DNA from: Escherichia coli
GTDB lineage: Bacteria; Pseudomonadota; Gammaproteobacteria; Enterobacterales; Enterobacteriaceae
Length of the DNA: 64,000 nucleotides
Direction: 5' to 3' (one strand)
Assembly: GCF_036507355.1 (NCBI RefSeq)
Contig: NZ_AP027877.1
Shown here: in pieces, positions 26,485 through 53,409 of the stretch
Layout: the number at the start of each line of letters is the position of its first letter
Numbering within the stretch: the stretch's first letter is position 1
The notes under the pieces: generated by a model
What the model saw: the letters and a program-made list of their open reading frames with translations, nothing else
Databases searched by the model: none
Told to the model about the DNA's origin: nothing
Position numbers and translations under genes: made by a program

Positions 26485-27384
26485 TCACTCCATCATCTTC
26501 TCAATCGGCAGGACCAGAATCGAACTGGCACCCAGCGCTTTCAGTTTTTCCATCGTTTCCCAGAACAGGGTTTCGCTACTGACCATGTGCATCGCTACGC
26601 GCTGTTGATCACCCGCCAGCGGTAGAATAGTTGGGCGTTCGGCACCTGGCAGCAGGGCGATGACTTCATCCAGACGTTCGGTCGGTGCGTGCATCATGAT
26701 GTATTTTGATTCGCGCGCCTGGATCACACCCTGAATACGGGTCAGCAGTTTGTCGATCAGTTGCTGTTTGGATTCTTCCATTTCGCCATCGCGTTGTATC
26801 AGGCAGGCTTTCGAGCGATAGATAACTTCGACTTCGCGCAGGCCGTTTGCTTCCAGCGTGGCACCGGTGGAAACCAGATCGCAAATCGCATCCGCCAGTC
26901 CGGCACGCGGGGCGACTTCAACAGAACCGTTCAGTAAGCAGGATTTAAAAGAGATGCCTTTCTGGTCGAGATAACGCTTGAGCAGGTGAGGATAAGAGGT
27001 GGCGATACGTTTACCGTTTAAGGAGAGCGGGCCATCCCAGGCTTCATCAACCGGCGTTGCCAGTGAAAGTCGGCAGCCGCCGAAATCCAGACGACGCAGG
27101 GTAAAGTAGCGCGGATCTTCACCTTGGGCGCGGCGATTAAGCAACTCTTCTTCCAGCACGTTTTCGCCGATAATCCCAAGGTCTACCACGCCATCCATTA
27201 CCAGACCGGGAATGTCGTCGTCACGCACGCGCAGAATATCAATCGGCATGTTTTCTGCCATCGCGATCAGGCGCTGGGTGTGAAGATTGATTTTAATGCC
27301 ACAGCGCGCCAGCAATTCGCGTGAGTCATCACTTAAACGGCCGGATTTCTGCATAGCTATGCGTAAACGAGTGTTGTCTGTCAT
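26485..27384 (-). CDS. hisG: ATP phosphoribosyltransferase
   Basis: 299 aa from [17 protein letters not shown]; first structural gene of the his operon. Confidence 0.95.
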
Positions 27385-27431
27385 TTTCTTATTCCTCTTT
27401 AAACCTGTCTGAACCGTTATCAACCGCGCAA

Positions 27432-27466
27432 TAAAAAAGCCCCCGGAAGGTGATCTTCCGGGGGCT
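27432..27466 (-). terminator. his attenuator terminator hairpin
   Basis: Minus strand reads gcccccggaag-atcac-cttccgggggc followed by a T-run, between hisL and hisG. Confidence 0.85.
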
Positions 27467-27529
27467 TTCTCATGCGTTCATGAACCACTGGAAGATCTGA
27501 ATGTCTTCCAGCACACATCGCCTGAAAGA

Positions 27530-27580
27530 CTAGTCAGGATGATGGTGATGATGGTGGTGTTTAAATTGAACGCGTGTCAT
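27530..27580 (-). CDS. hisL: his operon leader peptide (MTRVQFKHHHHHHHPD)
   Basis: Minus-strand 16-codon ORF with seven consecutive His codons, read directly from the sequence. Confidence 0.95.
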   Translation of the reverse strand: MTRVQFKHHHHHHHPD

Positions 27581-27789
27581 AAAAGTCTCTGTGAATGTTT
27601 ATTCAACTGATGTCTTTTAACCTAAACCACTTTCACGTTAGAAAGCAAGGGCTTTTTTATATATTTTATGGCGATGGATTTGTTTAATGAATGAGCGGGG
27701 AAAGGAGGGGGCTAAGAGTGACTAGGTTAAAAAAGTAATCGTGAAAATATGTCATTAAACCCTCAAGAACATTGTGTTCTGTAACTAAA

Positions 27790-27900
27790 GTGGGCTTTGT
27801 TCCTGCCGGATGCGGCGTGAATGCCTTATCAGGTCTACAAATGTTGCCTAAATTCAATATATTGATGTTTTTGTAGGACTGATAAGCGGAGCGCATCAGG
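27790..27900. repeat. REP/BIME palindromic repeats in the hisL-yeeZ spacer
   Basis: gccggatgcggcgtgaa...cttatcag units in inverted arrangement. Confidence 0.5.
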
Positions 27901-28005
27901 CAATGGTATATTTGCTAACAGTTTCGATTTCATTCATAGAATGAATTGTCAGTTTTGATACGCTAGCGTAGCCTTATAGATCTAAGGTGTATCAGGAGAT
28001 AACGG

Positions 28006-28830
28006 ATGAAAAAGGTCGCAATTGTCGGGTTAGGGTGGTTAGGCATGCCGCTGGCGATGTCACTTTCAGCGCGAGGCTGGCAAGTCACCGGGAGTAAAAC
28101 CACACAAGATGGTGTCGAAGCGGCCCGAATGAGTGGCATTGATAGCTATCTGCTTCGCATGGAGCCTGAGTTAGTTTGCGATTCTGACGATCTGGATGCC
28201 CTGATGGATGCCGATGCGCTGGTCATTACGCTTCCGGCACGTCGTAGCGGCCCCGGCGATGAGTTCTATTTACAAGCGGTACAAGAGTTAGTGGATAGCG
28301 CGCTGGCCCATCGTATTCCCCGAATTATTTTTACCAGCTCAACATCTGTCTATGGCGACGCGCAAGGCACGGTGAAAGAAACCACCTCGCGTAATCCGGT
28401 AACCAACAGTGGACGAGTATTAGAAGAACTCGAAGACTGGCTGCACAATTTACCCGGTACTTCGGTCGATATTCTGCGTCTTGCGGGCCTGGTCGGACCG
28501 GGACGTCATCCCGGACGCTTCTTTGCCGGAAAAACCGCGCCTGATGGTGAACATGGTGTTAATTTAGTCCATTTAGAAGATGTTATTGGCGCTATCACTC
28601 TGTTGTTACAGGCACCTAAAGGCGGACACATCTATAATATATGTGCGCCATCTCACCCTGCGCGTAATGTTTTCTATCCGCAGATGGCCCGTTTACTGGG
28701 GCTGGAACCTCCGCAGTTCAGAAATAGTCTGGACAGCGGCAAAGGTAAGATTATTGATGGCAGTCGGATTTGTAATGAACTGGGATTTGAATACCAGTAT
28801 CCCGATCCGCTGGTAATGCCGCTGGAGTAA
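28006..28830 (+). CDS. yeeZ: NAD-dependent epimerase/dehydratase family protein (274 aa)
   Basis: N-terminal Rossmann GxxGxxG (VGLGWLGMPLA); conserved position next to his. Confidence 0.85.
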   Translation: MKKVAIVGLGWLGMPLAMSLSARGWQVTGSKTTQDGVEAARMSGIDSYLLRMEPELVCDSDDLDALMDADALVITLPARRSGPGDEFYLQAVQELVDSALAHRIPRIIFTSSTSVYGDAQGTVKETTSRNPVTNSGRVLEELEDWLHNLPGTSVDILRLAGLVGPGRHPGRFFAGKTAPDGEHGVNLVHLEDVIGAITLLLQAPKGGHIYNICAPSHPARNVFYPQMARLLGLEPPQFRNSLDSGKGKIIDGSRICNELGFEYQYPDPLVMPLE

Positions 28831-32950: not shown

Positions 32951-34375
32951 TTAGACAATCTCTTCCGCGTACTGCCAAAGCGCTTTTAACAGCGCCACTT
33001 TTTCTTTATCGTCGGCATACTGCTGCGCCAGCATCTGAATCTCTTCTGCATAGCCTTGTAAAAACACGGGTGTGAATACCTGGCGGCGGTGTTCCAGCCA
33101 GCGTTGCTGCTCGGCATAATCCAGCGTCCCCGGGAAGTTGCGCGCCCGATAATTGAACAACAGCTTTTCAATCCGTTTATCGACAAAAGTGATATCCAGT
33201 GCCGGTAAATTACGTGGCTCGGTTTCCAGCACAATTTTCATTGCTGCACGATCGGCGTCACTGAAAAAGCCGTTATAAAGCTGTGCATCCACGTTATCTG
33301 AAGGCGTAAACGGTTCGGCTTCCGCGAATATCGCCACCACTTTTTCGCGCACTTGCGGATTTTCACGCAGAATTTTCAGGTTATCGAGGCAATGCTGACG
33401 ATTAATTCCCAGTCGGTCGGCATCTTCCGGGCGTAGCGTATTCGCCTGGGCCAGCACCGGACATTTATTGATATGCACCAGCTTAACCGGAACGGCGGCG
33501 TTATCGCCAAGATCGGTTTTTGCGGTATATAAACGCTCGCGCAATGTGTCGCTATCCAGTTCCAGTAATGGCGAAATGTCTCCTGCCAAATCCACCATAA
33601 TTACGGCATTGCGATTTTCAGGATGCCACGCCAGCGGTGCCACCCAGCTGGTATTGCCGCGCCATGCCCCAAACATTCCGGAAACGTGAACCAGGGGTTT
33701 CATCTGCGGAACATCAATCAACGCCATCAGTTTGTGTTTATTGCGATGGGTAAAGAGATAATCAAACAGGCGTGGCTGACGCGTTTTTACCAGCTTTGCC
33801 ATCGCAATAGTGGCGTACACATCAGCCATCGCATCGTGGGCGTTGCTATGTTCAATTCCATTCGCTTTGGTTAAATGCTCAAGGCGAAAGCTCGGTAGAC
33901 CGTCATCATTTTCAGGCCAGTTTATTCCTTCCGGGCGCAGGGCATAACAGGCACGCATAACATCAAGTAAATCCCAGCGCGAGTTATCATGCTGCCAGCT
34001 CCAGGCGTAAGGATCGTAGAAATTACGATAAAAAATGTTGCGTGTGACTTCGTCGTCGAAACGCACATTGTTGTAGCCCAGAATACAGGTCTTCGGTACG
34101 GTAAAAAGCGAGTGAATACGGGCGGTAAACGCGGCTTCGTTTTCTCCTTTCGCCCGTGCTTCCTGCGGGGTAATACCGGTAATTAATATGGCTCCAGGCT
34201 GGGGTAAATAGTCATCCGCAGGCTTGCAGTAAAAGACTTCGGGTTCGCCGATGACATTGAATTCGCTATCGGTGCGAATGGCTGCGAACTGTGCAGGGCG
34301 ATCTAACGCGGGGTGCGTGCCAAAGGTTTCGTAATCGTGAAAGAGGAAGGTAGGTTGTTTATCTGTGTCTGTCAT
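32951..34375 (-). CDS. sbcB: Exodeoxyribonuclease I (474 aa)
   Basis: DEDDh exonuclease N-terminus (FHDYETFG); position. Confidence 0.9.
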   Translation of the reverse strand: MTDTDKQPTFLFHDYETFGTHPALDRPAQFAAIRTDSEFNVIGEPEVFYCKPADDYLPQPGAILITGITPQEARAKGENEAAFTARIHSLFTVPKTCILGYNNVRFDDEVTRNIFYRNFYDPYAWSWQHDNSRWDLLDVMRACYALRPEGINWPENDDGLPSFRLEHLTKANGIEHSNAHDAMADVYATIAMAKLVKTRQPRLFDYLFTHRNKHKLMALIDVPQMKPLVHVSGMFGAWRGNTSWVAPLAWHPENRNAVIMVDLAGDISPLLELDSDTLRERLYTAKTDLGDNAAVPVKLVHINKCPVLAQANTLRPEDADRLGINRQHCLDNLKILRENPQVREKVVAIFAEAEPFTPSDNVDAQLYNGFFSDADRAAMKIVLETEPRNLPALDITFVDKRIEKLLFNYRARNFPGTLDYAEQQRWLEHRRQVFTPVFLQGYAEEIQMLAQQYADDKEKVALLKALWQYAEEIV

Positions 34376-34556
34376 TGTCTATCATTGTCCACTGTAGTTA
34401 ATTAACTGTCTGTTATAACTCGAAAAACAACCCTTTTTTCACCTGAGTATGTCTACGAACGTCAAATATAGTTGTTTACTGTGCGCTGTTGTCCATGTGA
34501 TATTGTGTACCAGATGTGTACCAAACTATTATTTCTGAGCGTACCAAATATTATTT

Positions 34557-34853
34557 ATGGCTATAAGCGACACAAAACTGCGTACTATTTATGGTAAACC
34601 ATATTCGGGCCCACAAGAAGTGGCTGATGCCGATGGCCTCAGCGTACGAATTTCACCGAAGGGGGTCATCCAGTTCCAGTACCGCTATCGCTGGCATGGC
34701 AAGCCTAATCGACTTGGGCTTGGTCGATACCCATCCCTGTCTTTGAAGGATGCCAGACAGATCACTGCTGACTTGCGAAAGCTCTATTTCTCAGGAACGG
34801 ATCCACGCACCTATTTTGAAGAGAAGGTGGAGAACTCCATGACGGTACGTTAA
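34557..34853 (+). pseudogene. Integrase N-terminal fragment (arm-binding domain only, 98 aa)
   Basis: Resembles the N-terminal arm-binding domain of P4-family integrases (SDTKLRTIYGKP...GLSVRISPKG...YRYRW); ORF stops before any catalytic domain. Confidence 0.6.
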
Positions 34854-34902
34854 TTTCTTCCGGTGTGAGCGTTGGGGAAGTCCATTCCTTGGGCGCGCGG
34901 AT

Positions 34903-35739
34903 TTGAATACTGTGGAGTTCATCAGTGAAGCACCTAAGTTTCTTATGTGTTTCAGTTCTAATTCACCTATAGACGTATGGGACACCGCTGATTTATTTAT
35001 TAGTGAATGCTCAATGTTTGCTGGAGATTTTGCGGTAAGAACACGCACAACACTTGGTGGGATGGGTGGAACAGACCAATTCGCGGGTTATCCGGTTATA
35101 ATTTCAAATAGCGTTTTTGATGCCATCAACGGTACTGCTTTTGATATGGAGAGTCTAGCTTACGCTACCATCAGCGGTAACATTATTAGTGCAGGGAGGA
35201 TAAACAATAGTCGTGGAATTAATATTAAAGGGGCAAGAAACCTAACATTTACAGGAAACACTATCACTTACTGTGGTGAGTTCGGCATGGTATTGGAAAA
35301 TGCTGAACAATGTTCTTTGTCTAATAATATATTCAACGGAAATAAGACTGGTGGGCTATCGTTGGTAAACTGTAAAGAAATATCTGTTATTGGCGGCTCT
35401 ATGGGTACGTCTTATATCAAAGGTGGGTACTACGTGCAACCACTTGGGATCACAGACCCTGCTGATAACTGTAACGGCATAACCATCAATGGCGTTTCTT
35501 TCGATAGCGATATGACAACCAAGATTTACCTTAATACATCGGAAGAGCGCAAAAACCGTATTATAGCTTGTCTAGGTGTTAATGATACTCAGACGACTTA
35601 TCAAAACCGTGGATCTACTGCGCAGCGCCCTACAGCACCAGTCAGTGGGCAGATGTATTATGATACAACGCTAGGTCTTCCAATATGGTATAACACAGTA
35701 TCATCTGAATGGAAGAGGGCGGATGGTACAAGTGTATGA
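34903..35739 (+). CDS. Phage tail fibre / tailspike fragment (beta-helix repeats), probably truncated
   Basis: Low-GC ORF with repeated NxxGxxxxG beta-helix-like segments; no credible N-terminus; directly precedes gtrC as in serotype-converting phages. Confidence 0.55.
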   Translation: MNTVEFISEAPKFLMCFSSNSPIDVWDTADLFISECSMFAGDFAVRTRTTLGGMGGTDQFAGYPVIISNSVFDAINGTAFDMESLAYATISGNIISAGRINNSRGINIKGARNLTFTGNTITYCGEFGMVLENAEQCSLSNNIFNGNKTGGLSLVNCKEISVIGGSMGTSYIKGGYYVQPLGITDPADNCNGITINGVSFDSDMTTKIYLNTSEERKNRIIACLGVNDTQTTYQNRGSTAQRPTAPVSGQMYYDTTLGLPIWYNTVSSEWKRADGTSV

Positions 35740-35770
35740 TAATGCGGGTGCTTAGCACCCGCTTATTTAA

Positions 35771-37237
35771 TTAATTGCAGTTGAATGTAATGTTTTTATC
35801 GTAAACAAAAATCTTCTTATCTCCGACGTCAATAACCTTTGATGGATTACCAATCTCTTTAATTGTTATATTTCTCATAACCTCATCATCTGTAATTATG
35901 AAATTTCCTCCGCGCTCATACCAATAGTTTTTTGACAACCATTTATTGCATGCAAGTATATTCAAACCTCGGTTTACATCAATCGGAGCAATTGATATGT
36001 CTCCATCTATACTTGCTGATGAAGCAAACCAGAAAGATGCATACCCGTTTGTGAGGTTATTCTGCCTTACAGTGTGTTTTATCTGATTTATAATATCATT
36101 AGAATTGTCTTTTTTTTCATGCATATAAATAGAACAAAAGAGAATAAATGTTGTAACAACCCCTAATGCGATGAATTTCCACCCTCTGGAGTTGTTAGAT
36201 CTGCCAATAACAACAGGTGCTAGTATAAAAAATGGAACGATATATCTTATAGTCCATTCATCTATTGGACGGTTACTTGCAAGGTATGCTGGTATCATTA
36301 TAATACAAGCTATACATATAGCCATATTGACCATGGAGGTTTTGAATATTTCCTTTACTGACATTGCAACTAATATAAGAAGTAAAATCATTACAACAAA
36401 ACAAAAAACAGAAATAAGCGCTGTAATATCAGAAGGTGGTTTGCCAAAGAAGAAAGCTCCACTGTATAGGAGGAATCCTTTTACGAATAAGTATAAATTA
36501 TTCAGGATATCATCAAATGCAACAAATGTTGGATCTGGAACGCCTGGCAAAATGTACCAGTTATGAGCTCTTGCGTACATGGTCATAATTTTTGATGCAA
36601 CATATGCAAATATAGTTGCAACTAGTATGATCAGATTTTTTTGGCTTTTGGTTTTTACTATAAAAATCACTGATGATATTGCTACTGGTGCAATAATGAG
36701 TAGCTTTATGATGTCATCACTGAAACAAGCTAGAACTAACACTAAAATATAAAGAGATAGAGAAATTAACGATCTTGTTTTGGAAAAATTGTCTAACATT
36801 ATGAAGCAAAACAACATGGATACATATGTGCCGACATGTATCACAGGTATTAATACGTTTAATACTGCAAACCCAGAAGGCAGCGCAACGCAAAATGAAA
36901 TGGCCCATAACGATGAAAGCCTTTCTTTTGAAAGATAAAATGTCATCAATGTAACCATTGAATACATAATTGCCGGTATGCAGTATGCTTGGTACTGTCC
37001 GTACCAGAATACCTTTGAAGCAAGTCCGTACCATATTATGTCTGTAAAATAGAATGATACTGTAGAGAGATACCATCCACTAAGCGTCCAATTTCCGTCC
37101 GCAATGTCCTTACCCTCAAGAAGTCCAGAAACAGCATCCGAACTTGGCAAAATCTGTTTTGAAATCGAGGCGTAGAAGAAAGTCAAGAATATAAATCCAA
37201 TGATATATATGGCTGTTTTTTTTATATTTAAAGTCAT
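35771..37237 (-). CDS. Serotype-specific O-antigen glucosyltransferase, GtrC-like (488 aa, polytopic)
   Basis: Large low-GC multi-TM protein immediately downstream of gtrB and gtrA in the same operon. Confidence 0.65.
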   Translation of the reverse strand: MTLNIKKTAIYIIGFIFLTFFYASISKQILPSSDAVSGLLEGKDIADGNWTLSGWYLSTVSFYFTDIIWYGLASKVFWYGQYQAYCIPAIMYSMVTLMTFYLSKERLSSLWAISFCVALPSGFAVLNVLIPVIHVGTYVSMLFCFIMLDNFSKTRSLISLSLYILVLVLACFSDDIIKLLIIAPVAISSVIFIVKTKSQKNLIILVATIFAYVASKIMTMYARAHNWYILPGVPDPTFVAFDDILNNLYLFVKGFLLYSGAFFFGKPPSDITALISVFCFVVMILLLILVAMSVKEIFKTSMVNMAICIACIIMIPAYLASNRPIDEWTIRYIVPFFILAPVVIGRSNNSRGWKFIALGVVTTFILFCSIYMHEKKDNSNDIINQIKHTVRQNNLTNGYASFWFASSASIDGDISIAPIDVNRGLNILACNKWLSKNYWYERGGNFIITDDEVMRNITIKEIGNPSKVIDVGDKKIFVYDKNITFNCN

Positions 37238-37238
37238 T

Positions 37239-38153
37239 TTACTTATCCTTTAGAATGTATCTTGGTCGTTGCTTAACTTCAACATAAATTCTTCCTATAT
37301 ACTCTCCAAGAACTCCTATGCCTATTAACTGAACTCCACCAAGAAACAATATTGATACAATGATAGAAGGGTAACCTGGAACACTATTTCCAAACATCAA
37401 TTTATCAGCAATCATCCATGTTCCATAAAGGAATGATAAGGTTGCCACAAACAGGCCTATATAAGTCCACATGCGCAAAGGGAAAGTAGAAAAGCTAGTG
37501 ATCCCTTCCAGCGCTAAGTTCCAGAGCTTCCATCCATTGAACTTTGTGCTTCCTGCAACGCGTTCTGCTCGCGCATATTCTACGACATCGGTTCGACCAC
37601 CAACCCAGCTCAGCACACCCTTCATAAACAGGTTTCGTTCTGGCATGAGCTTAATGTTTTCTACTACTTCGCGAGACATGAGCCGGAAGTCGCCAACATT
37701 TTCTTCTATCTTAGGGTTGCTGATTTTGTTATGAAGCTTATAGAACCACTCAGCAGATTTACGCTTCAGCCTGCTGTCAGTGGAGCGGTCAGAGCGTTTA
37801 GCCAGAACCATATCTGCACCGGCCTGCCATTTCTCTATCAAGTGAGGAATAACTTCGATAGGGTCTTGCAGATCAACGTCAATCGGGATAATTGCCTCCC
37901 CGGTAGCATGGTCCAGGCCTGCGAACAGGGCGGGTTCTTTGCCGAAGTTACGTGTGAACGACAGCGAAACAACAAGCGGGTCGGCAACAGCAAGCTCGTT
38001 GATAATTGATTCTGTAGCGTCTTTGCTGCCATCGTTTATGAAGACTATCTCGACTTCATGCTGCTGAAGCCCTTCAAATTCGCGCACGGTTTTATAAAAA
38101 ATAGGTATCGTGGCCTCTTCGTTAAAGACCGGAACGACTAAAGAAATTTTCAT
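37239..38153 (-). CDS. gtrB: Bactoprenol glucosyltransferase (GT2) GtrB (304 aa)
   Basis: GT2 N-terminal domain (VVPVFNEE...INDGSKD...DVDLQDP) and two C-terminal TM helices. Confidence 0.85.
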
Positions 38154-38512
38154 TTCGCATCCCTAAAGACAATGAACTTTGAATAGACGAAACCGCACAC
38201 CAGGCTGATGGCGGAGAAGGTGATAAGAGTGACAATTGGAGGAAGTGAACATCTATCAGCAGCCCATCCAACAGTAGCACTGAGTGTTCCCATGAACCCG
38301 ACATATAACATGTAGCGCATCGTTGTAGTTGATGCTTTGAATGTGAATTTTGCATTCGCGAAGAAGCTAAAACTCACAGCCACAACAAAACCTGCGAAGT
38401 TTGCCAGAGCCTGATTGGTATGCGCGGCATAGATACAAACACCAAAAACCACCCAGTGTATAAGGGTGTTCAGCACACCAATAGAGGTGTACTTTGCAAA
38501 TAGCTTTAACAT
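38150..38512 (-). CDS. gtrA: GtrA-family flippase for UndP-glucose (120 aa)
   Basis: Small 4-TM GtrA-like protein; overlaps gtrB start by 4 nt. Confidence 0.85.
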
Positions 38513-38642
38513 TTCTTCTATCAGCTAATAATCAAAGGCATGAAGTCTATCATCCAAGTCTCAATCGATCGATACTTGCTGTAATTGCTGAGACAAAACT
38601 GAGACAAACAAAGCTTTGCACTGGTTTGCAAGTCTTTGTGTC

Positions 38643-38714
38643 ATTCGATAGTTAAGGTGGATCCCTCCACCTTTTCATCAAGCCAATCCGCCCACCACTG
38701 CATCATTTCTCTGC
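38643..38714 (-). pseudogene. Remnant of the 3' end of a P4-family integrase gene
   Basis: Minus-strand translation RREMMQWWADWLDEKVEG... parallels the C-terminus (RIEMMQWWSDYLDAN) of the intact integrase at 55789-57066; the upstream frame is closed by a stop. Confidence 0.5.
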
Positions 38715-39307
38715 GCTTAACGTAGCGGATGCCTCACTATCACACGGTGATGGTTCATTACTGCTTTGTAGAATGGATAGAGAACTGAGGATTAAAAGAT
38801 ATCCCAAAACCCCAAAATCTCATCTTTAGGATTTGCAGAAAGGGAGGCGTGAACAGATACCTGCGCATGAAGACGGAACTAGTCCAGATGTGATATTTGT
38901 GGTGATCACATACATCATCAACGATGCTCGTTATGGTGAGTTTGATGACTACCCGATGAAGTGAAAATTGTGTTGTGTACCAAATTGCGTACCAAACTAA
39001 AATTACAAATCATGAAACCCTTGTTCATGGCGGTTCTCAGGGGTGTTGCGCGTAATCGTGAAACAAAAAGGTAGATTGTTGCTTACCGTCATTCATCATT
39101 AGGTTAAATCCGTTATTTCTGCTGTCTGCCAGAGTATCAAATATCACCGTACTAATCAGCTTTAGCGCCACAATTTGGCAGCGAGTGGCAATAGATCATG
39201 TCAGATAAAAATGAGAGGGTAGTCACATTTTCTTGCACTTTATTCCAGCCAGTTCATAAGTATTTCCGTAAAAAGAACAGCTATTTGAAACTCCTGAGGG
39301 TTTGCTG

Positions 39308-40474
39308 TTGAAACGCCGTCTTATTATTGCTGCTTCTTTGTTCGTTTTTAACTTATCGTCTGGTTTTGCGGCGGAAAACATTCCTTTTTCACCTCAGCCT
39401 CCAGAGATTCATGCCGGGTCCTGGGTACTGATGGATTACACCACCGGACAGATCCTCACCGCGGGTAATGAGCATCAACAGCGCAATCCTGCCAGCCTGA
39501 CAAAGCTGATGACGGGTTATGTCGTGGATCGCGCTATCGATAGTCATCGCATTACGCCAGACGATATTGTCACCGTGGGGCGCGATGCGTGGGCGAAAGA
39601 TAATCCGGTGTTTGTCGGTTCTTCACTGATGTTTTTGAAAGAGGGCGATCGCGTATCGGTACGTGATTTAAGCCGTGGTTTAATTGTTGATTCCGGAAAT
39701 GACGCTTGTGTTGCACTGGCTGACTATATTGCCGGTGGGCAACGGCAGTTTGTTGAAATGATGAACAACTATGTCGAGAAGCTGCATCTCAAGGATACGC
39801 ATTTTGAAACAGTGCATGGCCTGGATGCGCCAGGTCAGCATAGCTCGGCTTATGATTTAGCTGTGCTTTCTCGCGCTATCATCCACGGCGAGCCCGAGTT
39901 TTATCATATGTACAGTGAGAAAAGTCTCACCTGGAACGGTATCACCCAGCAAAACCGTAACGGGTTGTTGTGGGATAAAACCATGAATGTTGACGGCCTG
40001 AAAACGGGTCATACTTCTGGTGCCGGGTTTAATCTCATTGCTTCGGCTGTAGATGGGCAGCGTCGTCTCATTGCAGTGGTAATGGGGGCTGACAGTGCAA
40101 AAGGTCGTGAGGAAGAGGCAAGAAAATTACTGCGTTGGGGGCAACAAAACTTTACTACGGTGCAAATTTTGCACCGTGGGAAAAAGGTCGGAACGGAACG
40201 CATCTGGTATGGCGATAAAGAAAATATCGACCTGGGAACGGAACAAGAGTTCTGGATGGTGCTACCGAAAGCCGAAATTCCACATATCAAAGCCAAATAT
40301 ACCCTTGATGGTAAAGAGCTCACCGCGCCAATTAGCGCCCATCAGCGGGTAGGGGAAATTGAACTTTACGACCGTGATAAACAGGTGGCGCACTGGCCGC
40401 TGGTTACCCTGGAATCTGTCGGGGAAGGCAGCATGTTTTCTCGCCTGAGTGATTATTTCCACCATAAGGCCTGA
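39308..40474 (+). CDS. dacD: D-alanyl-D-alanine carboxypeptidase, PBP6b (388 aa)
   Basis: SxxK, SGN and KTG motifs; start taken as TTG at 39308. Confidence 0.85.
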   Translation: MKRRLIIAASLFVFNLSSGFAAENIPFSPQPPEIHAGSWVLMDYTTGQILTAGNEHQQRNPASLTKLMTGYVVDRAIDSHRITPDDIVTVGRDAWAKDNPVFVGSSLMFLKEGDRVSVRDLSRGLIVDSGNDACVALADYIAGGQRQFVEMMNNYVEKLHLKDTHFETVHGLDAPGQHSSAYDLAVLSRAIIHGEPEFYHMYSEKSLTWNGITQQNRNGLLWDKTMNVDGLKTGHTSGAGFNLIASAVDGQRRLIAVVMGADSAKGREEEARKLLRWGQQNFTTVQILHRGKKVGTERIWYGDKENIDLGTEQEFWMVLPKAEIPHIKAKYTLDGKELTAPISAHQRVGEIELYDRDKQVAHWPLVTLESVGEGSMFSRLSDYFHHKA

Positions 40475-49135: not shown

Positions 49136-49808
49136 TGCGGATTTTGTTGTAGTTTATTGAATTTAAATGATTTTTATGAGTAGAATAAAAATAAGGCCCT
49201 TAGAAAGGCCCCTCAGATATTTTTGCTTAAAAAGATGATGTAAGTCACATTTTCAGGGGCTGTTACCTGGAGGTCTTAAAACCAACGAGAGGTCGTCATT
49301 CCTGGCGTATAGCGGGAATGCACCAGACATACAGAAACAGGGACTTGCACCAGCTTTAATATAGCTGGCTGCACCAGATCCTGGCGCTGCAAAAGTCCAT
49401 GATTGCGCCAGATTCTGAGGGATTACATCGATCTGAGCCAGAGTTGTCCCTTTGGGTTATAGCCTTTTCAGGTCAGGTGCTGTTACCCTTAGCTGGCCTT
49501 TACCCTTTTCCTTTTGACCGTCGGCTATGTGCCAAAAGCGGAATTCCAGTGGTTCTAGAAAAGCTATCATTCCATGGTCAAATTTTGTCGATCACTGCAC
49601 TTATGGAACCGCCATAACATAGGTAGATAGTTGAAGATAGCTAGAACGATGATAGATGATTTTCTTTACAGGGCTGACTTCTAGTCTATCTCATGTAATA
49701 CTCTATATTATATCTAATGTACAATATTAATAGCATTGTGATGTATCGACAACATGGATAGTCCACTGCTATTAAAACTATAATGACATTTAATTGAGAA
49801 ATATAAAA

Positions 49809-50826
49809 ATGACTCTATTAGAAAAATTGTTATCAAAAGGATACTTTCCTAAAGAAGCTCTCCCTCCTTTCTCTACGGAAAAATATGCACGCGCAATTGT
49901 GAATGGATACGATAATCTTCCCCAATTATTTAGAACCGGAAAATTCATAAGTAAGTGCGCTATTCATAATATTTCCAGAAAAGGTACATTACGGAGAAAA
50001 CTTGGAATACCTAATCCCATCAACTTCTTTAGATTAAGTGAGGCAATAACTGAAAATTGGTACGATATATATGAATGCGCAAGTGAATCAACAATATCGT
50101 TGACAACTCCAGACCCTGCCAGCAATGGCGGAAGAGCATTCAACCCAAAGCATTCATTAAATGAGCTTCCAGATATTCATGCAAAACTTAGAAGTAAACA
50201 TAAATATATACTTAAAACCGATATAAGCAGATTTTACCACTCAATATACACTCATAGTATTGCATGGACTTACCATACAAAAGATATTTCAAAAAGAAAC
50301 AGAAGCAATAGTTTATTTGGCAATGTATTAGACAAGCATTCGCAAGATTCGCAAGATGGACAAACAATAGGGCTCCCCATTGGTCCAGATACATCACTTA
50401 TCATAGCAGAGTCTCTGTTATCAAATATTGATCTTAAGCTTAGCGAAAAAGGCATTAGCAATGGCTTACGTTATATAGATGATTATTTCCTAGGGTTCAA
50501 TACAATTGGGGAAGCAGAATCTGCATTAACAATAATGCAGGAACTGTTAAACGAATATGAGTTAGCATTGAACCCCTTGAAAACAGAAATCATACAATTA
50601 CCAATTGAATTCGAGCCATTAGCAATTTCAGAACTAAGGGCATTTTCATTTAGAGATACAGCTGGCGGTCAGAAATCAGATTTAATGCATTATTTCAACA
50701 TAGCTTTCAAGGCAGCAAAAGATTTACCAACGGAACCAATATTAAAATATGCAGTATCAAGGACATTTGAAGTAAATGTTACTGCTGAAAACTATCCTGT
50801 TTTTGAAAATTTTATATTACAATGTG
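49809..50826 (+). pseudogene. Reverse transcriptase, N-terminal 339 codons, interrupted by IS1
   Basis: RT motifs DISRFYHSIY, GLPIGPDTSL, YIDDYF (YxDD) and LNPLKTEI; the frame runs straight into the IS1 end at 50827. Confidence 0.8.
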
Positions 50827-50881
50827 GGTGATGCTGCCAACTTACTGATTTAGTGTATGATGGTGTTTTTGAGGTGCTCCA

Positions 50882-51157
50882 GTGGCTTCTGTTTCTATCA
50901 GCTGTCCCTCCTGTTCAGCTACTGACGGGGTGGTGCGTAACGGCAAAAGCACCGCCGGACATCAGCGCTATCTCTGCTCTCACTGTCGTAAAACATGGCA
51001 ACTGCAGTTCACTTACACCGCTTCTCAACCCGGTACGCACCAGAAAATCATTGATATGGCCATGAATGGCGTTGGATGCCGGGCAACAGCCCGCATTATG
51101 GGCGTTGGCCTCAACACGATTTTACGTCACTTAAAAAACTCAGGCCGCAGTCGGTAA
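50882..51157 (+). CDS. insA: IS1 InsA (91 aa)
   Basis: Zinc-finger N-terminus CPSC...CSHC; canonical IS1 ORF. Confidence 0.95.
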
Positions 51158-51579
51158 CCTCGCGCATACAGCCGGGCAGTGACGTCATCGTCTGCGCGGA
51201 AATGGACGAACAGTGGGGCTATGTCGGGGCTAAATCGCGCCAGCGCTGGCTGTTTTACGCGTATGACAGGCTCCGGAAGACGGTTGTTGCGCACGTATTC
51301 GGTGAACGCACGATGGCGACGCTGGGGCGTCTTATGAGCCTGCTGTCACCCTTTGACGTGGTGATATGGATGACGGATGGCTGGCCGCTGTATGAATCCC
51401 GCCTGAAGGGAAAGCTGCACGTAATCAGCAAGCGATATACGCAGCGAATTGAGCGGCATAACCTGAATCTGAGGCAGCACCTGGCACGGCTGGGACGGAA
51501 GTCGCTGTCGTTCTCAAAATCGGTGGAGCTGCATGACAAAGTCATCGGGCATTATCTGAACATAAAACACTATCAATAA
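51076..51579 (+). CDS. insB: IS1 InsB (transposase catalytic part, made as InsAB by frameshift)
   Basis: Canonical IS1 second ORF overlapping insA. Confidence 0.9.
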
Positions 51580-51602
51580 GTTGGAGTCATTACCTACAAT
51601 GT

Positions 51603-51881
51603 GTTACAGCTGACAGTAGCACATTAAAATACACCGTCAATCAGCTTATAAAATACAAAAGAATAGGTTATGTTCAGAACGTTGAGAACATTTCGCATAT
51701 TTTGAGACAATTAGCAATAACTGAAAGCTCACTTGGCCATGGACACGAAGTTGCTTATTGCCTATGGCTTTATTTGATACTACGCATCCCCATACCAGAA
51801 GTCGTCGTTAAAAATGTGGTACCAATGAGAGATCCATTTGTTGCAATTTTGTTATGCGATTGCAGGCAAAAAACCTCATGA
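51603..51881 (+). pseudogene. Reverse transcriptase C-terminal 92 codons displaced by IS1
   Basis: With one copy of the 9-bp duplication removed, the RT frame continues without stops from 51603 to TGA at 51879-51881. Confidence 0.7.
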
Positions 51882-52171
51882 CTTTTATACCTGATTTCTC
51901 AATTTATGAGCAAATGATGGTGATGGAAGAGCTATCGGGCGATATGTAGATTTTTGTCTATGAGATGCTTGCAAAAGGATGGTTTCAACCATTATCAAAC
52001 CAAAATCCAATTAGTCAAAATGAGTGTTATAGGTTCCTATTGAATTCAGGTGTTTTTTTCTATAATGAACATCTCTCATTAACTATTATGGCTGAAAGTC
52101 CAATTGATACAGATGGCTCGGCAGAGGGATTCAGTGGTTGAAATTAAAAATTATCTGTAAATAACTAACCC

Positions 52172-52210
52172 CCCTCCCTTTAATTTAATATTAAGGGAGG
52201 GTTGTGTTTC
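52172..52210 (+). terminator. Hairpin terminator downstream of the RT gene
   Basis: ccctccctt-(12 nt)-aagggaggg perfect 9-bp stem followed by ttgtgtttc; also marks a GC-content transition. Confidence 0.4.
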
Positions 52211-52449
52211 GATATACATATATGGGCTTTGGTGAATAAATCAGATTTGGGATAAACATCCCTGGAGACAGTTGCAGCTGTCAGGTAATACGCACGCTTT
52301 TTGCTCAGAACCCCATCAATGCGCCGCCAGCACTTTTGCAGCCAGCCCAGTCGGGTTACGCCGTCTGGACTCCCAACTTTTGATGATATCGACGCTGGTT
52401 CCTTAGGGTTATTGCGTAACGATTTATTCTGCGCCAGTCATGAAAGCCG

Positions 52450-53409
52450 TTATTCCTTCTTCCATTCGTGCGCGTAAACCTGCTTCACCCAGCGACCGCG
52501 CCCGTCGCCATGCCCCAGGTCCATCGCCACCATTGCCAGCGCCTCTTTTTCGCTGAATCCCTGCGCCAGATACCGGCGAATATCGTCCTGCGCCAGATAC
52601 CGGCGAATATCGTCCTGCGCCCAGGCGTAACGCAGCGAATGTGGGGAGTATTTGCCCGTCAGCCCCATACGCAAAGTCTGGTTGCGCCAGTATTTCATTG
52701 CCTGTTTAAGGCTTGCCGCATCAATCAGCCTGCCGTTGCGCAGTCCTGCCACCACAATGGCATTATCGAGCGCCCGTTTAACTGCGCCAGCATTCTGAAT
52801 AAGGGTATCGCGGGGCCGCCCGCCTTTGGTGCCAAACACGATGGTTAGCCGGGTGGCTCCACGTTCAAGCGACTGCCGCCACGTCAGCAATGAACGTGAA
52901 CAGCGTACCGCCTCCTGTGAACGTAACCCCATCAGCCGCGCCAGCTCCAGCGCTGCCGCCAGTCCTGCGTCTTTCAGCCGGGCAGTCTCTGCCATCTGTT
53001 GATAATATTCCGGCGTGATGGCTTTCCGTGTACCATTGCGGGATACGCCAGCCAGCCCCAGCGATTTATTCGATATCCGCTCACTCTGCGCCAGTTTTTC
53101 GCGCCCGGCCTGCGTCAGTATTTTACGGATAGCCGCCGTTTCGTTATGCAGCGTCTGTTTCTGAATACCCTGCGCCAGTCGCATCTGAATATACGCCTCA
53201 ATATGCTTCGCCTTTAAATGATGGACATAGCGTATCTGAACGTTCAGTTCCGTCAGTCGTTCGCAGAACCGTTCTGCCATGGCGATACGGTCATGGACAG
53301 TCTTGTGCGCCCCGCCAGCCTGCCGCGCCAGGTTTTTCATCTCTCTTTCCAGCATACCCATTTTGCTTTTCCTCTTATCTCGCTCCTGATTTTCACAAAA
53401 CCACAACAC
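52450..53409 (-). CDS. Tyrosine recombinase / phage-integrase-family protein with internal 9-aa tandem duplication (319 aa)
   Basis: C-terminal HSLRY...LGHGDGRGRWVKQVYAH resembles recombinase box II with catalytic Tyr; DDIRRYLAQ is duplicated through a 27-bp tandem repeat at 52561-52614. Confidence 0.6.
   Translation of the reverse strand: MLWFCENQERDKRKSKMGMLEREMKNLARQAGGAHKTVHDRIAMAERFCERLTELNVQIRYVHHLKAKHIEAYIQMRLAQGIQKQTLHNETAAIRKILTQAGREKLAQSERISNKSLGLAGVSRNGTRKAITPEYYQQMAETARLKDAGLAAALELARLMGLRSQEAVRCSRSLLTWRQSLERGATRLTIVFGTKGGRPRDTLIQNAGAVKRALDNAIVVAGLRNGRLIDAASLKQAMKYWRNQTLRMGLTGKYSPHSLRYAWAQDDIRRYLAQDDIRRYLAQGFSEKEALAMVAMDLGHGDGRGRWVKQVYAHEWKKE

Follow-up and report, generated by a model that had tools for sequence, protein, structure and literature searches.

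Between hisL and yeeZ, E. coli K-12 carries the type II toxin-antitoxin (TA) pair yefM-yoeB. We asked whether a 64-kb stretch of an E. coli chromosome, hereafter the window, has this pair at the same position, what occupies the site if it does not, and which of the two arrangements is the older. The initial annotation of the window had placed the pair at this position in K-12, had found no counterpart between hisL and yeeZ and had called the absence a strain difference. The K-12 record agrees with that placement, as the gene order in MG1655 is yeeZ - yoeB - yefM - hisL (NC_000913.3). K-12 has both genes at the site and the window has neither.

Layout of the spacer and absence of the TA pair

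The hisL-yeeZ spacer of the window spans 27581..28005 (425 bp, 38% G+C) and is non-coding; the interval considered in the initial annotation (27585..28005) falls inside it. The flank on the his side begins with hisG (26485..27384, minus strand), found in the list of open reading frames, which encodes ATP phosphoribosyltransferase, is the first structural gene of the his operon and is 98.1% identical to K-12 hisG. The matching gene is annotated as hisG in commensal strain G4/9, whose locus is near-identical to that of the window. The His operon leader, or attenuator RNA, was located at 27431..27554 (minus strand) by a match to Rfam RF00514 over its full length (1-126). The assignment is supported by a score of 131.2 bits against a gathering score of 49, together with a His-rich leader peptide. 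This peptide, hisL (27530..27580, minus strand), translates as MTRVQFKHHHHHHHPD followed by the stop codon, is encoded with seven consecutive His codons and is annotated as hisL in the matching RefSeq genomes. On the other side of the spacer, the yeeZ reading frame (28006..28830, plus strand) specifies a 274-aa protein of the SDR / NAD-dependent epimerase family (Pfam PF01370, E = 1.1e-11) and is 99.4% identical to K-12 yeeZ; yeeY lies beyond it.

The spacer separates divergent promoters and is made up of four parts: the his promoter side, a 60-bp stretch, a 205-bp segment with a BIME at its core, and the yeeZ upstream block. The his promoter side (27581..27663, minus strand) aligns with the Salmonella and Citrobacter spacers, where it is conserved, and the earlier statement that the spacer holds the his promoter region was borne out. 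We take the likely his promoter to have its −10 element, TAGGTT, as the complement of 27619..27624 and its −35 element, TTGCTT, as the complement of 27643..27648. A scan of the spacer for promoter and terminator consensus sequences yielded no hit that rose above shuffled sequence and did not pick up the expected his promoter. The following 60 bp (27664..27723) are specific to Escherichia by alignment, being common to the BIME and yefM-yoeB alleles and absent from Salmonella and Citrobacter. The 205 bp at 27724..27928, delimited by blastn breakpoints, are allele-specific and stand in place of the yefM-yoeB segment of K-12. K-12 has the same sequence in the last part (27929..28005, plus strand), which is likely to contain the promoter and 5′ UTR of yeeZ, and most of it is conserved in Salmonella and Citrobacter. 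The promoter-like CTAACA-16-TAGAAT at 27915..27942 is no more than a match to the consensus.

Searches of the 64-kb window by tblastn with YefM and YoeB from the K-12 record came back blank, in agreement with the initial annotation. The best E-value across the whole window was 1.8 for YefM and 0.75 for YoeB, with no YoeB match in the spacer; neither a gene for a Phd/YefM-family antitoxin (about 83 aa) nor one for a YoeB/Txe toxin (about 84 aa), which would overlap or abut the antitoxin gene, was found. The yefM promoter is reportedly autoregulated, with TGTACA operator palindromes upstream, in studies by Kedzierska from 2007 and by Bailey and Hayes from 2009. TGTACA, the core of the YefM operator, was not found in 27581..28005, nor was any autoregulated promoter of this type recognised there, and the 140-bp region upstream of yefM in K-12 had no homology in the window's spacer.

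The spacer had also been described as free of open reading frames. This holds in the sense that matters, although mechanical reading frames of up to 70 aa do exist; the longest (27684..27896, minus strand, 70 aa) passes through the REPs. None of the mechanical spacer reading frames matched a Pfam family in a search for coding potential, and no RefSeq annotation fell in the 205-bp segment in the listed matching E. coli genomes. As there was no Pfam match, we rejected coding potential for these reading frames. For annotation, the empty spacer is genuine and there is no call to hunt for small genes in it.

Alignment to the K-12 hisL-yeeZ region showed that K-12 carries the TA genes where the window has 205 other bp. 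By blastn, window 27301..27723 was 99% and 27929..28235 was 99.7% identical to K-12, with breakpoints at 27723/27724 and 27928/27929; at the left edge of the replaced part, the two sequences are identical up to approximately 27718-27723. The K-12 segment opposite 27724..27928 is 648 bp long and consists of 140 bp of upstream sequence, yefM, yoeB and 5 bp. The K-12 yefM-yoeB locus (b2017/b4539) thus has the same chromosomal position as the window's spacer, with matching flanks, but its genes, its 140-bp upstream region and its TGTACA operator are all missing from the window. We looked for residual homology between the 205 bp and the 648 bp on either strand, and between the first 80 and the first 140 bp of the two allele segments. 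All local alignment scores equalled those of shuffles, and this was therefore rejected. Because the allele segments align no better than shuffled sequence, the difference between the window and K-12 is a replacement by unrelated DNA and not a clean indel. We also considered whether a palindrome at the left junction in K-12, GCTAAGAGGAC-T-GTCCTCTTAGC, betrays how the insertion took place. Only K-12 has it in perfect form: in other TA alleles and in Escherichia whittamii the sequence is GTCCTCTAAC(T/C), giving 7-bp arms, and only AGAG of the left arm unambiguously belongs to the shared flank. We regard it as uninformative.

A BIME in the 205-bp segment

The interval 27804..27902 is one BIME, composed of a y-type REP, a linker and an inverted z-type REP. 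The y REP, TGCCGGATGCGGCGTGAATGCCTTATCAGGTCTAC (27804..27838, plus strand), aligns with the y REP of the BIME in the K-12 cmoB-torZ intergenic region. The 34-bp linker (27839..27872) includes AATTCAATATATTG, a motif also present in the linker of the cmoB-torZ BIME. The z REP (27873..27902, minus strand), whose reverse complement is TGCCTGATGCGCTCCGCTTATCAGTCCTAC, forms the inverted repeat I2/I7 with the y REP. Both REPs match CGNCTTATCNGGCCTAC, the REP consensus tail of the REP2-I primer; the matches lie at 27822..27838 (plus strand) and 27873..27889 (minus strand). Across the 64-kb window this pattern was found 6 times against 0.08 matches expected by chance. The REP-type palindromes noted earlier in the spacer correspond to these two units. 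REP units are described as imperfect palindromes of 30-40 nt with a GTAG/CTAC end (PMC3333891), and in the spacer CTAC closes 27804..27838 and GTAG opens 27873..27902.

Assignment of the pair to a BIME is supported by the inverted repeats I2 and I7, the 34-bp linker and the alignment with the cmoB-torZ element. The REP pair also folds as single-stranded DNA (z = -4.7). The K-12 cmoB-torZ BIME has the same architecture as that of the window (y REP, AATTCAATATATTG linker, inverted z REP), and a three-sequence alignment with it gave a mean column identity of 85%. It differs in lying at another locus with other flanks and in a linker length that is off by a few bases.

The second REP of the spacer BIME resembles the short z2 form and not z1. 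BIME-1, or RIP, elements are defined as a pair of z1 and y REPs joined by the long L linker, which is conserved and contains an IHF site (PMC3333891). On either strand, the linker in the spacer fits the IHF consensus WATCAANNNNTTR only if 1 mismatch is allowed, and for this reason we did not call the element a BIME-1/RIP. From its sequence, the most suitable name is a single or atypical BIME. Lying between divergent promoters, those of his and yeeZ, it may act as an insulator or as a site for protein binding, and this role is putative. Elsewhere in the window, four matches to the REP consensus in alternating orientation form a tandem BIME array at 2731-2879, in the colanic-acid region (wcaK-wzxC area). 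This cluster corresponds to REP insertions reported there by Iguchi et al. (PMC3158064).

Distribution of the two alleles

A TA-free spacer at this site is an ordinary feature that has already been described, and the initial annotation was correct about it. In O157 Sakai, yoeB and yefM are absent between yeeZ and hisL, and REPs are present in the spacer (Iguchi et al. 2011, PLoS One 6:e23250, PMC3158064). The spacers of O157:H7 Sakai and EDL933 have the same allele as the window, with REPs and no TA genes. They differ from it by a few point differences only (98.1% identity for O157:H7 over the 205 bp), and the closest genome to the window is that of commensal G4/9 (100% over the 205 bp). In a review figure, no type II TA system is conserved across MG1655, W, EDL933 and UTI89 (PMC7167474).

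We counted the two alleles in 5,426 complete E. coli genomes. The window's 205-bp allele was present in 1,196 of these (22%) at 96-100% identity and is thus not rare; its carriers include O157:H7 strains, BL21-AI and G4/9. The yefM-yoeB segment was found in 4,212 genomes (78%), at a median of one place per genome and a maximum of two. Together these make 5,408 of the 5,426 genomes, which is consistent with mutually exclusive alleles. A comparable alternation is that of ccdO157, which Mine et al. reportedly described in Genetics in 2009: a chromosomal type II TA system lies between folA and apaH in some E. coli, and a short unrelated intergenic sequence is said to be there in others. The likeness to hisL-yeeZ is the alternation of a TA system with a short spacer; the two cases differ in TA family and locus. 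Polymorphism of yefM-yoeB by phylogroup is also probably described in work of Ramisetty and Santhosh from 2016 and of Fiedoruk from 2015.

Two genomes had unusual spacers. In HH97 (NZ_CP116409.1, 2325-2973 of the extracted locus) the hisL-yeeZ spacer is 649 bp long, has no intact open reading frame and reads as a base-by-base interleaving of both alleles. We rejected it as a third allele, since such an interleaved consensus is probably an assembly artefact of mixed reads or a mixed sample in a RefSeq "complete" genome. In MEI4BO-21 (NZ_CM149565.1) identity to the window across the his leader region is only 89.6%, the spacer measures 178 bp, a length like that in Salmonella and Citrobacter, and there is no yeeY. 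Its his/yeeZ segment looks like an import from a distant lineage or another genus, and it was set aside as uninformative on the window's allele.

A scan for the hisL coding pattern in one genome per species recovered loci from 75 species; the chromosomes of E. fergusonii and E. marmotae and a typical E. coli representative are not among them. In about 65 species of Enterobacteriaceae, yeeZ directly and divergently adjoins hisL with no YefM or YoeB. The genera with this arrangement include Salmonella, Citrobacter, Enterobacter, Kluyvera, Raoultella, Kosakonia, Leclercia and Atlantibacter. E. whittamii was the only one of the 75 recovered species with the TA pair at hisL-yeeZ. The Salmonella and Citrobacter spacers are about 180 bp long and wholly lack a counterpart of window 27664..27929. 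In E. albertii, E. coli E69, Escherichia sp. MOD1-EC7003 and E1V33, the spacer is collinear with that of the window, BIME included. Spacer identity to the window in these four lineages was 92.5-97%, similar to or above that of hisG and yeeZ (92-97%).

Both junctions are the same in every TA allele examined, namely those of K-12, of three divergent E. coli strains and of E. whittamii, which indicates a single event. The 648-bp TA segment differs by 3.5-4.6% among E. coli strains and the adjacent 5′ ends of yeeZ by 0.3-1.9%. The TA segment of E. whittamii is 97-98% identical to the E. coli alleles and its yeeZ about 92%; the segment is nested within E. coli diversity and its flanks are not. Relatives of yefM-yoeB with 83-86% identity were found on plasmids of Salmonella, Citrobacter and E. 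marmotae. Their homology sets in some 64 bp ahead of yefM and stops at the yoeB stop codon. This span matches the published form of mobile TA cassettes, which consist of a promoter/operator and open reading frames without a terminator (PMC5120126).

Insertion or loss, and consequences for the strain

The window's allele is probably the ancestral Escherichia state, and the K-12 allele probably arose by a horizontal insertion that displaced the BIME segment. We read the window's allele as ancestral because the outgroups and most other Escherichia are without the TA pair, the latter having the BIME allele, and because the cassette has plasmid-borne relatives. We infer this polarity by parsimony from the sequences. 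K-12-type strains would have acquired yefM-yoeB in one horizontal event that replaced the 205-bp BIME segment. The acquired unit would have comprised roughly 64 bp with the promoter/operator, the two genes as far as the stop codon of yoeB, and a further 76 bp. Recombination would then have spread the TA allele to about 78% of sequenced E. coli.

Several observations speak against this ancestral reading, however. Both alleles are old, with TA segments up to 4.6% apart within E. coli, and the TA allele is also present in E. whittamii. The 60-bp Escherichia-specific stretch (27664..27723) is common to both alleles, and the right junction coincides with the edge of Escherichia-specific DNA. These last two features would also be compatible with a TA pair that was inserted early and later replaced.

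We weighed these observations under two other histories. In one, hisL-yeeZ would be a long-lived two-allele polymorphism (BIME versus yefM-yoeB) across Escherichia, maintained or reshuffled by recombination beside the O-antigen/his hotspot. This would accommodate a TA segment whose divergence between E. coli strains is 2-10 times that of the neighbouring yeeZ, and equally an E. whittamii TA segment that is nested in E. coli diversity while its flanks are not, with identical junctions that point to one origin. The excess divergence could stem from rapid evolution of the TA segment or from an old allele that passed between species, and we consider a maintained polymorphism doubtful. If true, it would suggest balancing or frequency-dependent selection on TA carriage.

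In the other, the ancestor of this strain, or of all lineages with the BIME allele, would have had yefM-yoeB and deleted it, the BIME-bearing 205 bp filling the gap. Such a secondary loss would agree with the shared 60 bp and the right junction, with a TA allele that is the E. coli majority and extends to E. whittamii, and with a depth of TA-allele diversity in E. coli that equals or exceeds that of the BIME allele. It appears unlikely, as the window retains no trace of yefM, yoeB or the TGTACA operator, and the BIME allele occurs in E. albertii and three other Escherichia lineages with a divergence that matches the flanks, so that a loss would have to predate the radiation of the genus. Furthermore, the roughly 65 outgroup species never had the TA pair at this site, and plasmid-borne relatives of the cassette are as expected for an incoming element. 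Assembly artefacts do occur at hisL-yeeZ, as the garbled HH97 spacer indicates. That the pair is missing only through a local assembly error, or is located elsewhere in this strain's genome, is very improbable, given 205 bp that are 100% identical to G4/9 and that over 1,100 further complete genomes match at 96-98%, a spacer collinear with other species, and allele counts (5,408/5,426, TA segment at one place in the median genome and at most two) that fit mutual exclusivity.

The absence of the pair would leave the strain without the YoeB ribosome-dependent mRNA interferase, an mRNA cleavage module, at hisL-yeeZ. In K-12, yefM-yoeB is likely to be co-transcribed with yeeZ, and read-through into yeeZ from the yefM promoter has been suggested (PMC5120126). 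In the window, yeeZ would be driven only by its own upstream block (27929..28005) and not by such read-through. The importance of the finding is small; it bears out the accessory status of yefM-yoeB in E. coli. Conclusions on K-12 YoeB (Lon-dependent mRNA cleavage, persistence) are not transferable to approximately one fifth of sequenced strains, O157:H7 and BL21 included. An ancestral BIME allele, as preferred above, would make the locus a neat case in which an intergenic BIME gave way to a plasmid-type TA cassette beside the O-antigen/his recombination hotspot.

The wider window resembles G4/9 (99.7% identity over the first 25 kb), and an O-antigen cluster of the O17/O44/O73/O77/O106 family adjoins the his operon. 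Between sbcB (32951..34375, minus strand) and dacD (39302..40474, plus strand), the window has 4.9 kb (34400-39300) where G4/9 has a gap of 209 bp. This stretch encodes a beta-helix protein (34903..35739, plus strand), a 488-aa protein with no Pfam match (35771..37237, minus strand) and a GT2 glycosyltransferase (37239..38153, minus strand), and it may be a gtr-like O-antigen modification module. Serogroups of the O17/O44/O73/O77/O106 family differ by side-branch glucosylation, so a module of this kind would fit the cluster next to his. Further along, beyond the region that holds tRNA-Asn, nac and cbl in G4/9, lie a reverse transcriptase (RVT_1, 49794..50831), an IS1 transposase (51076..51579) and an integrase (52450..53409, minus strand). 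G4/9 has the reverse transcriptase and the integrase in the matching position, and 49794-53409 looks like a retron- or RT-bearing islet.
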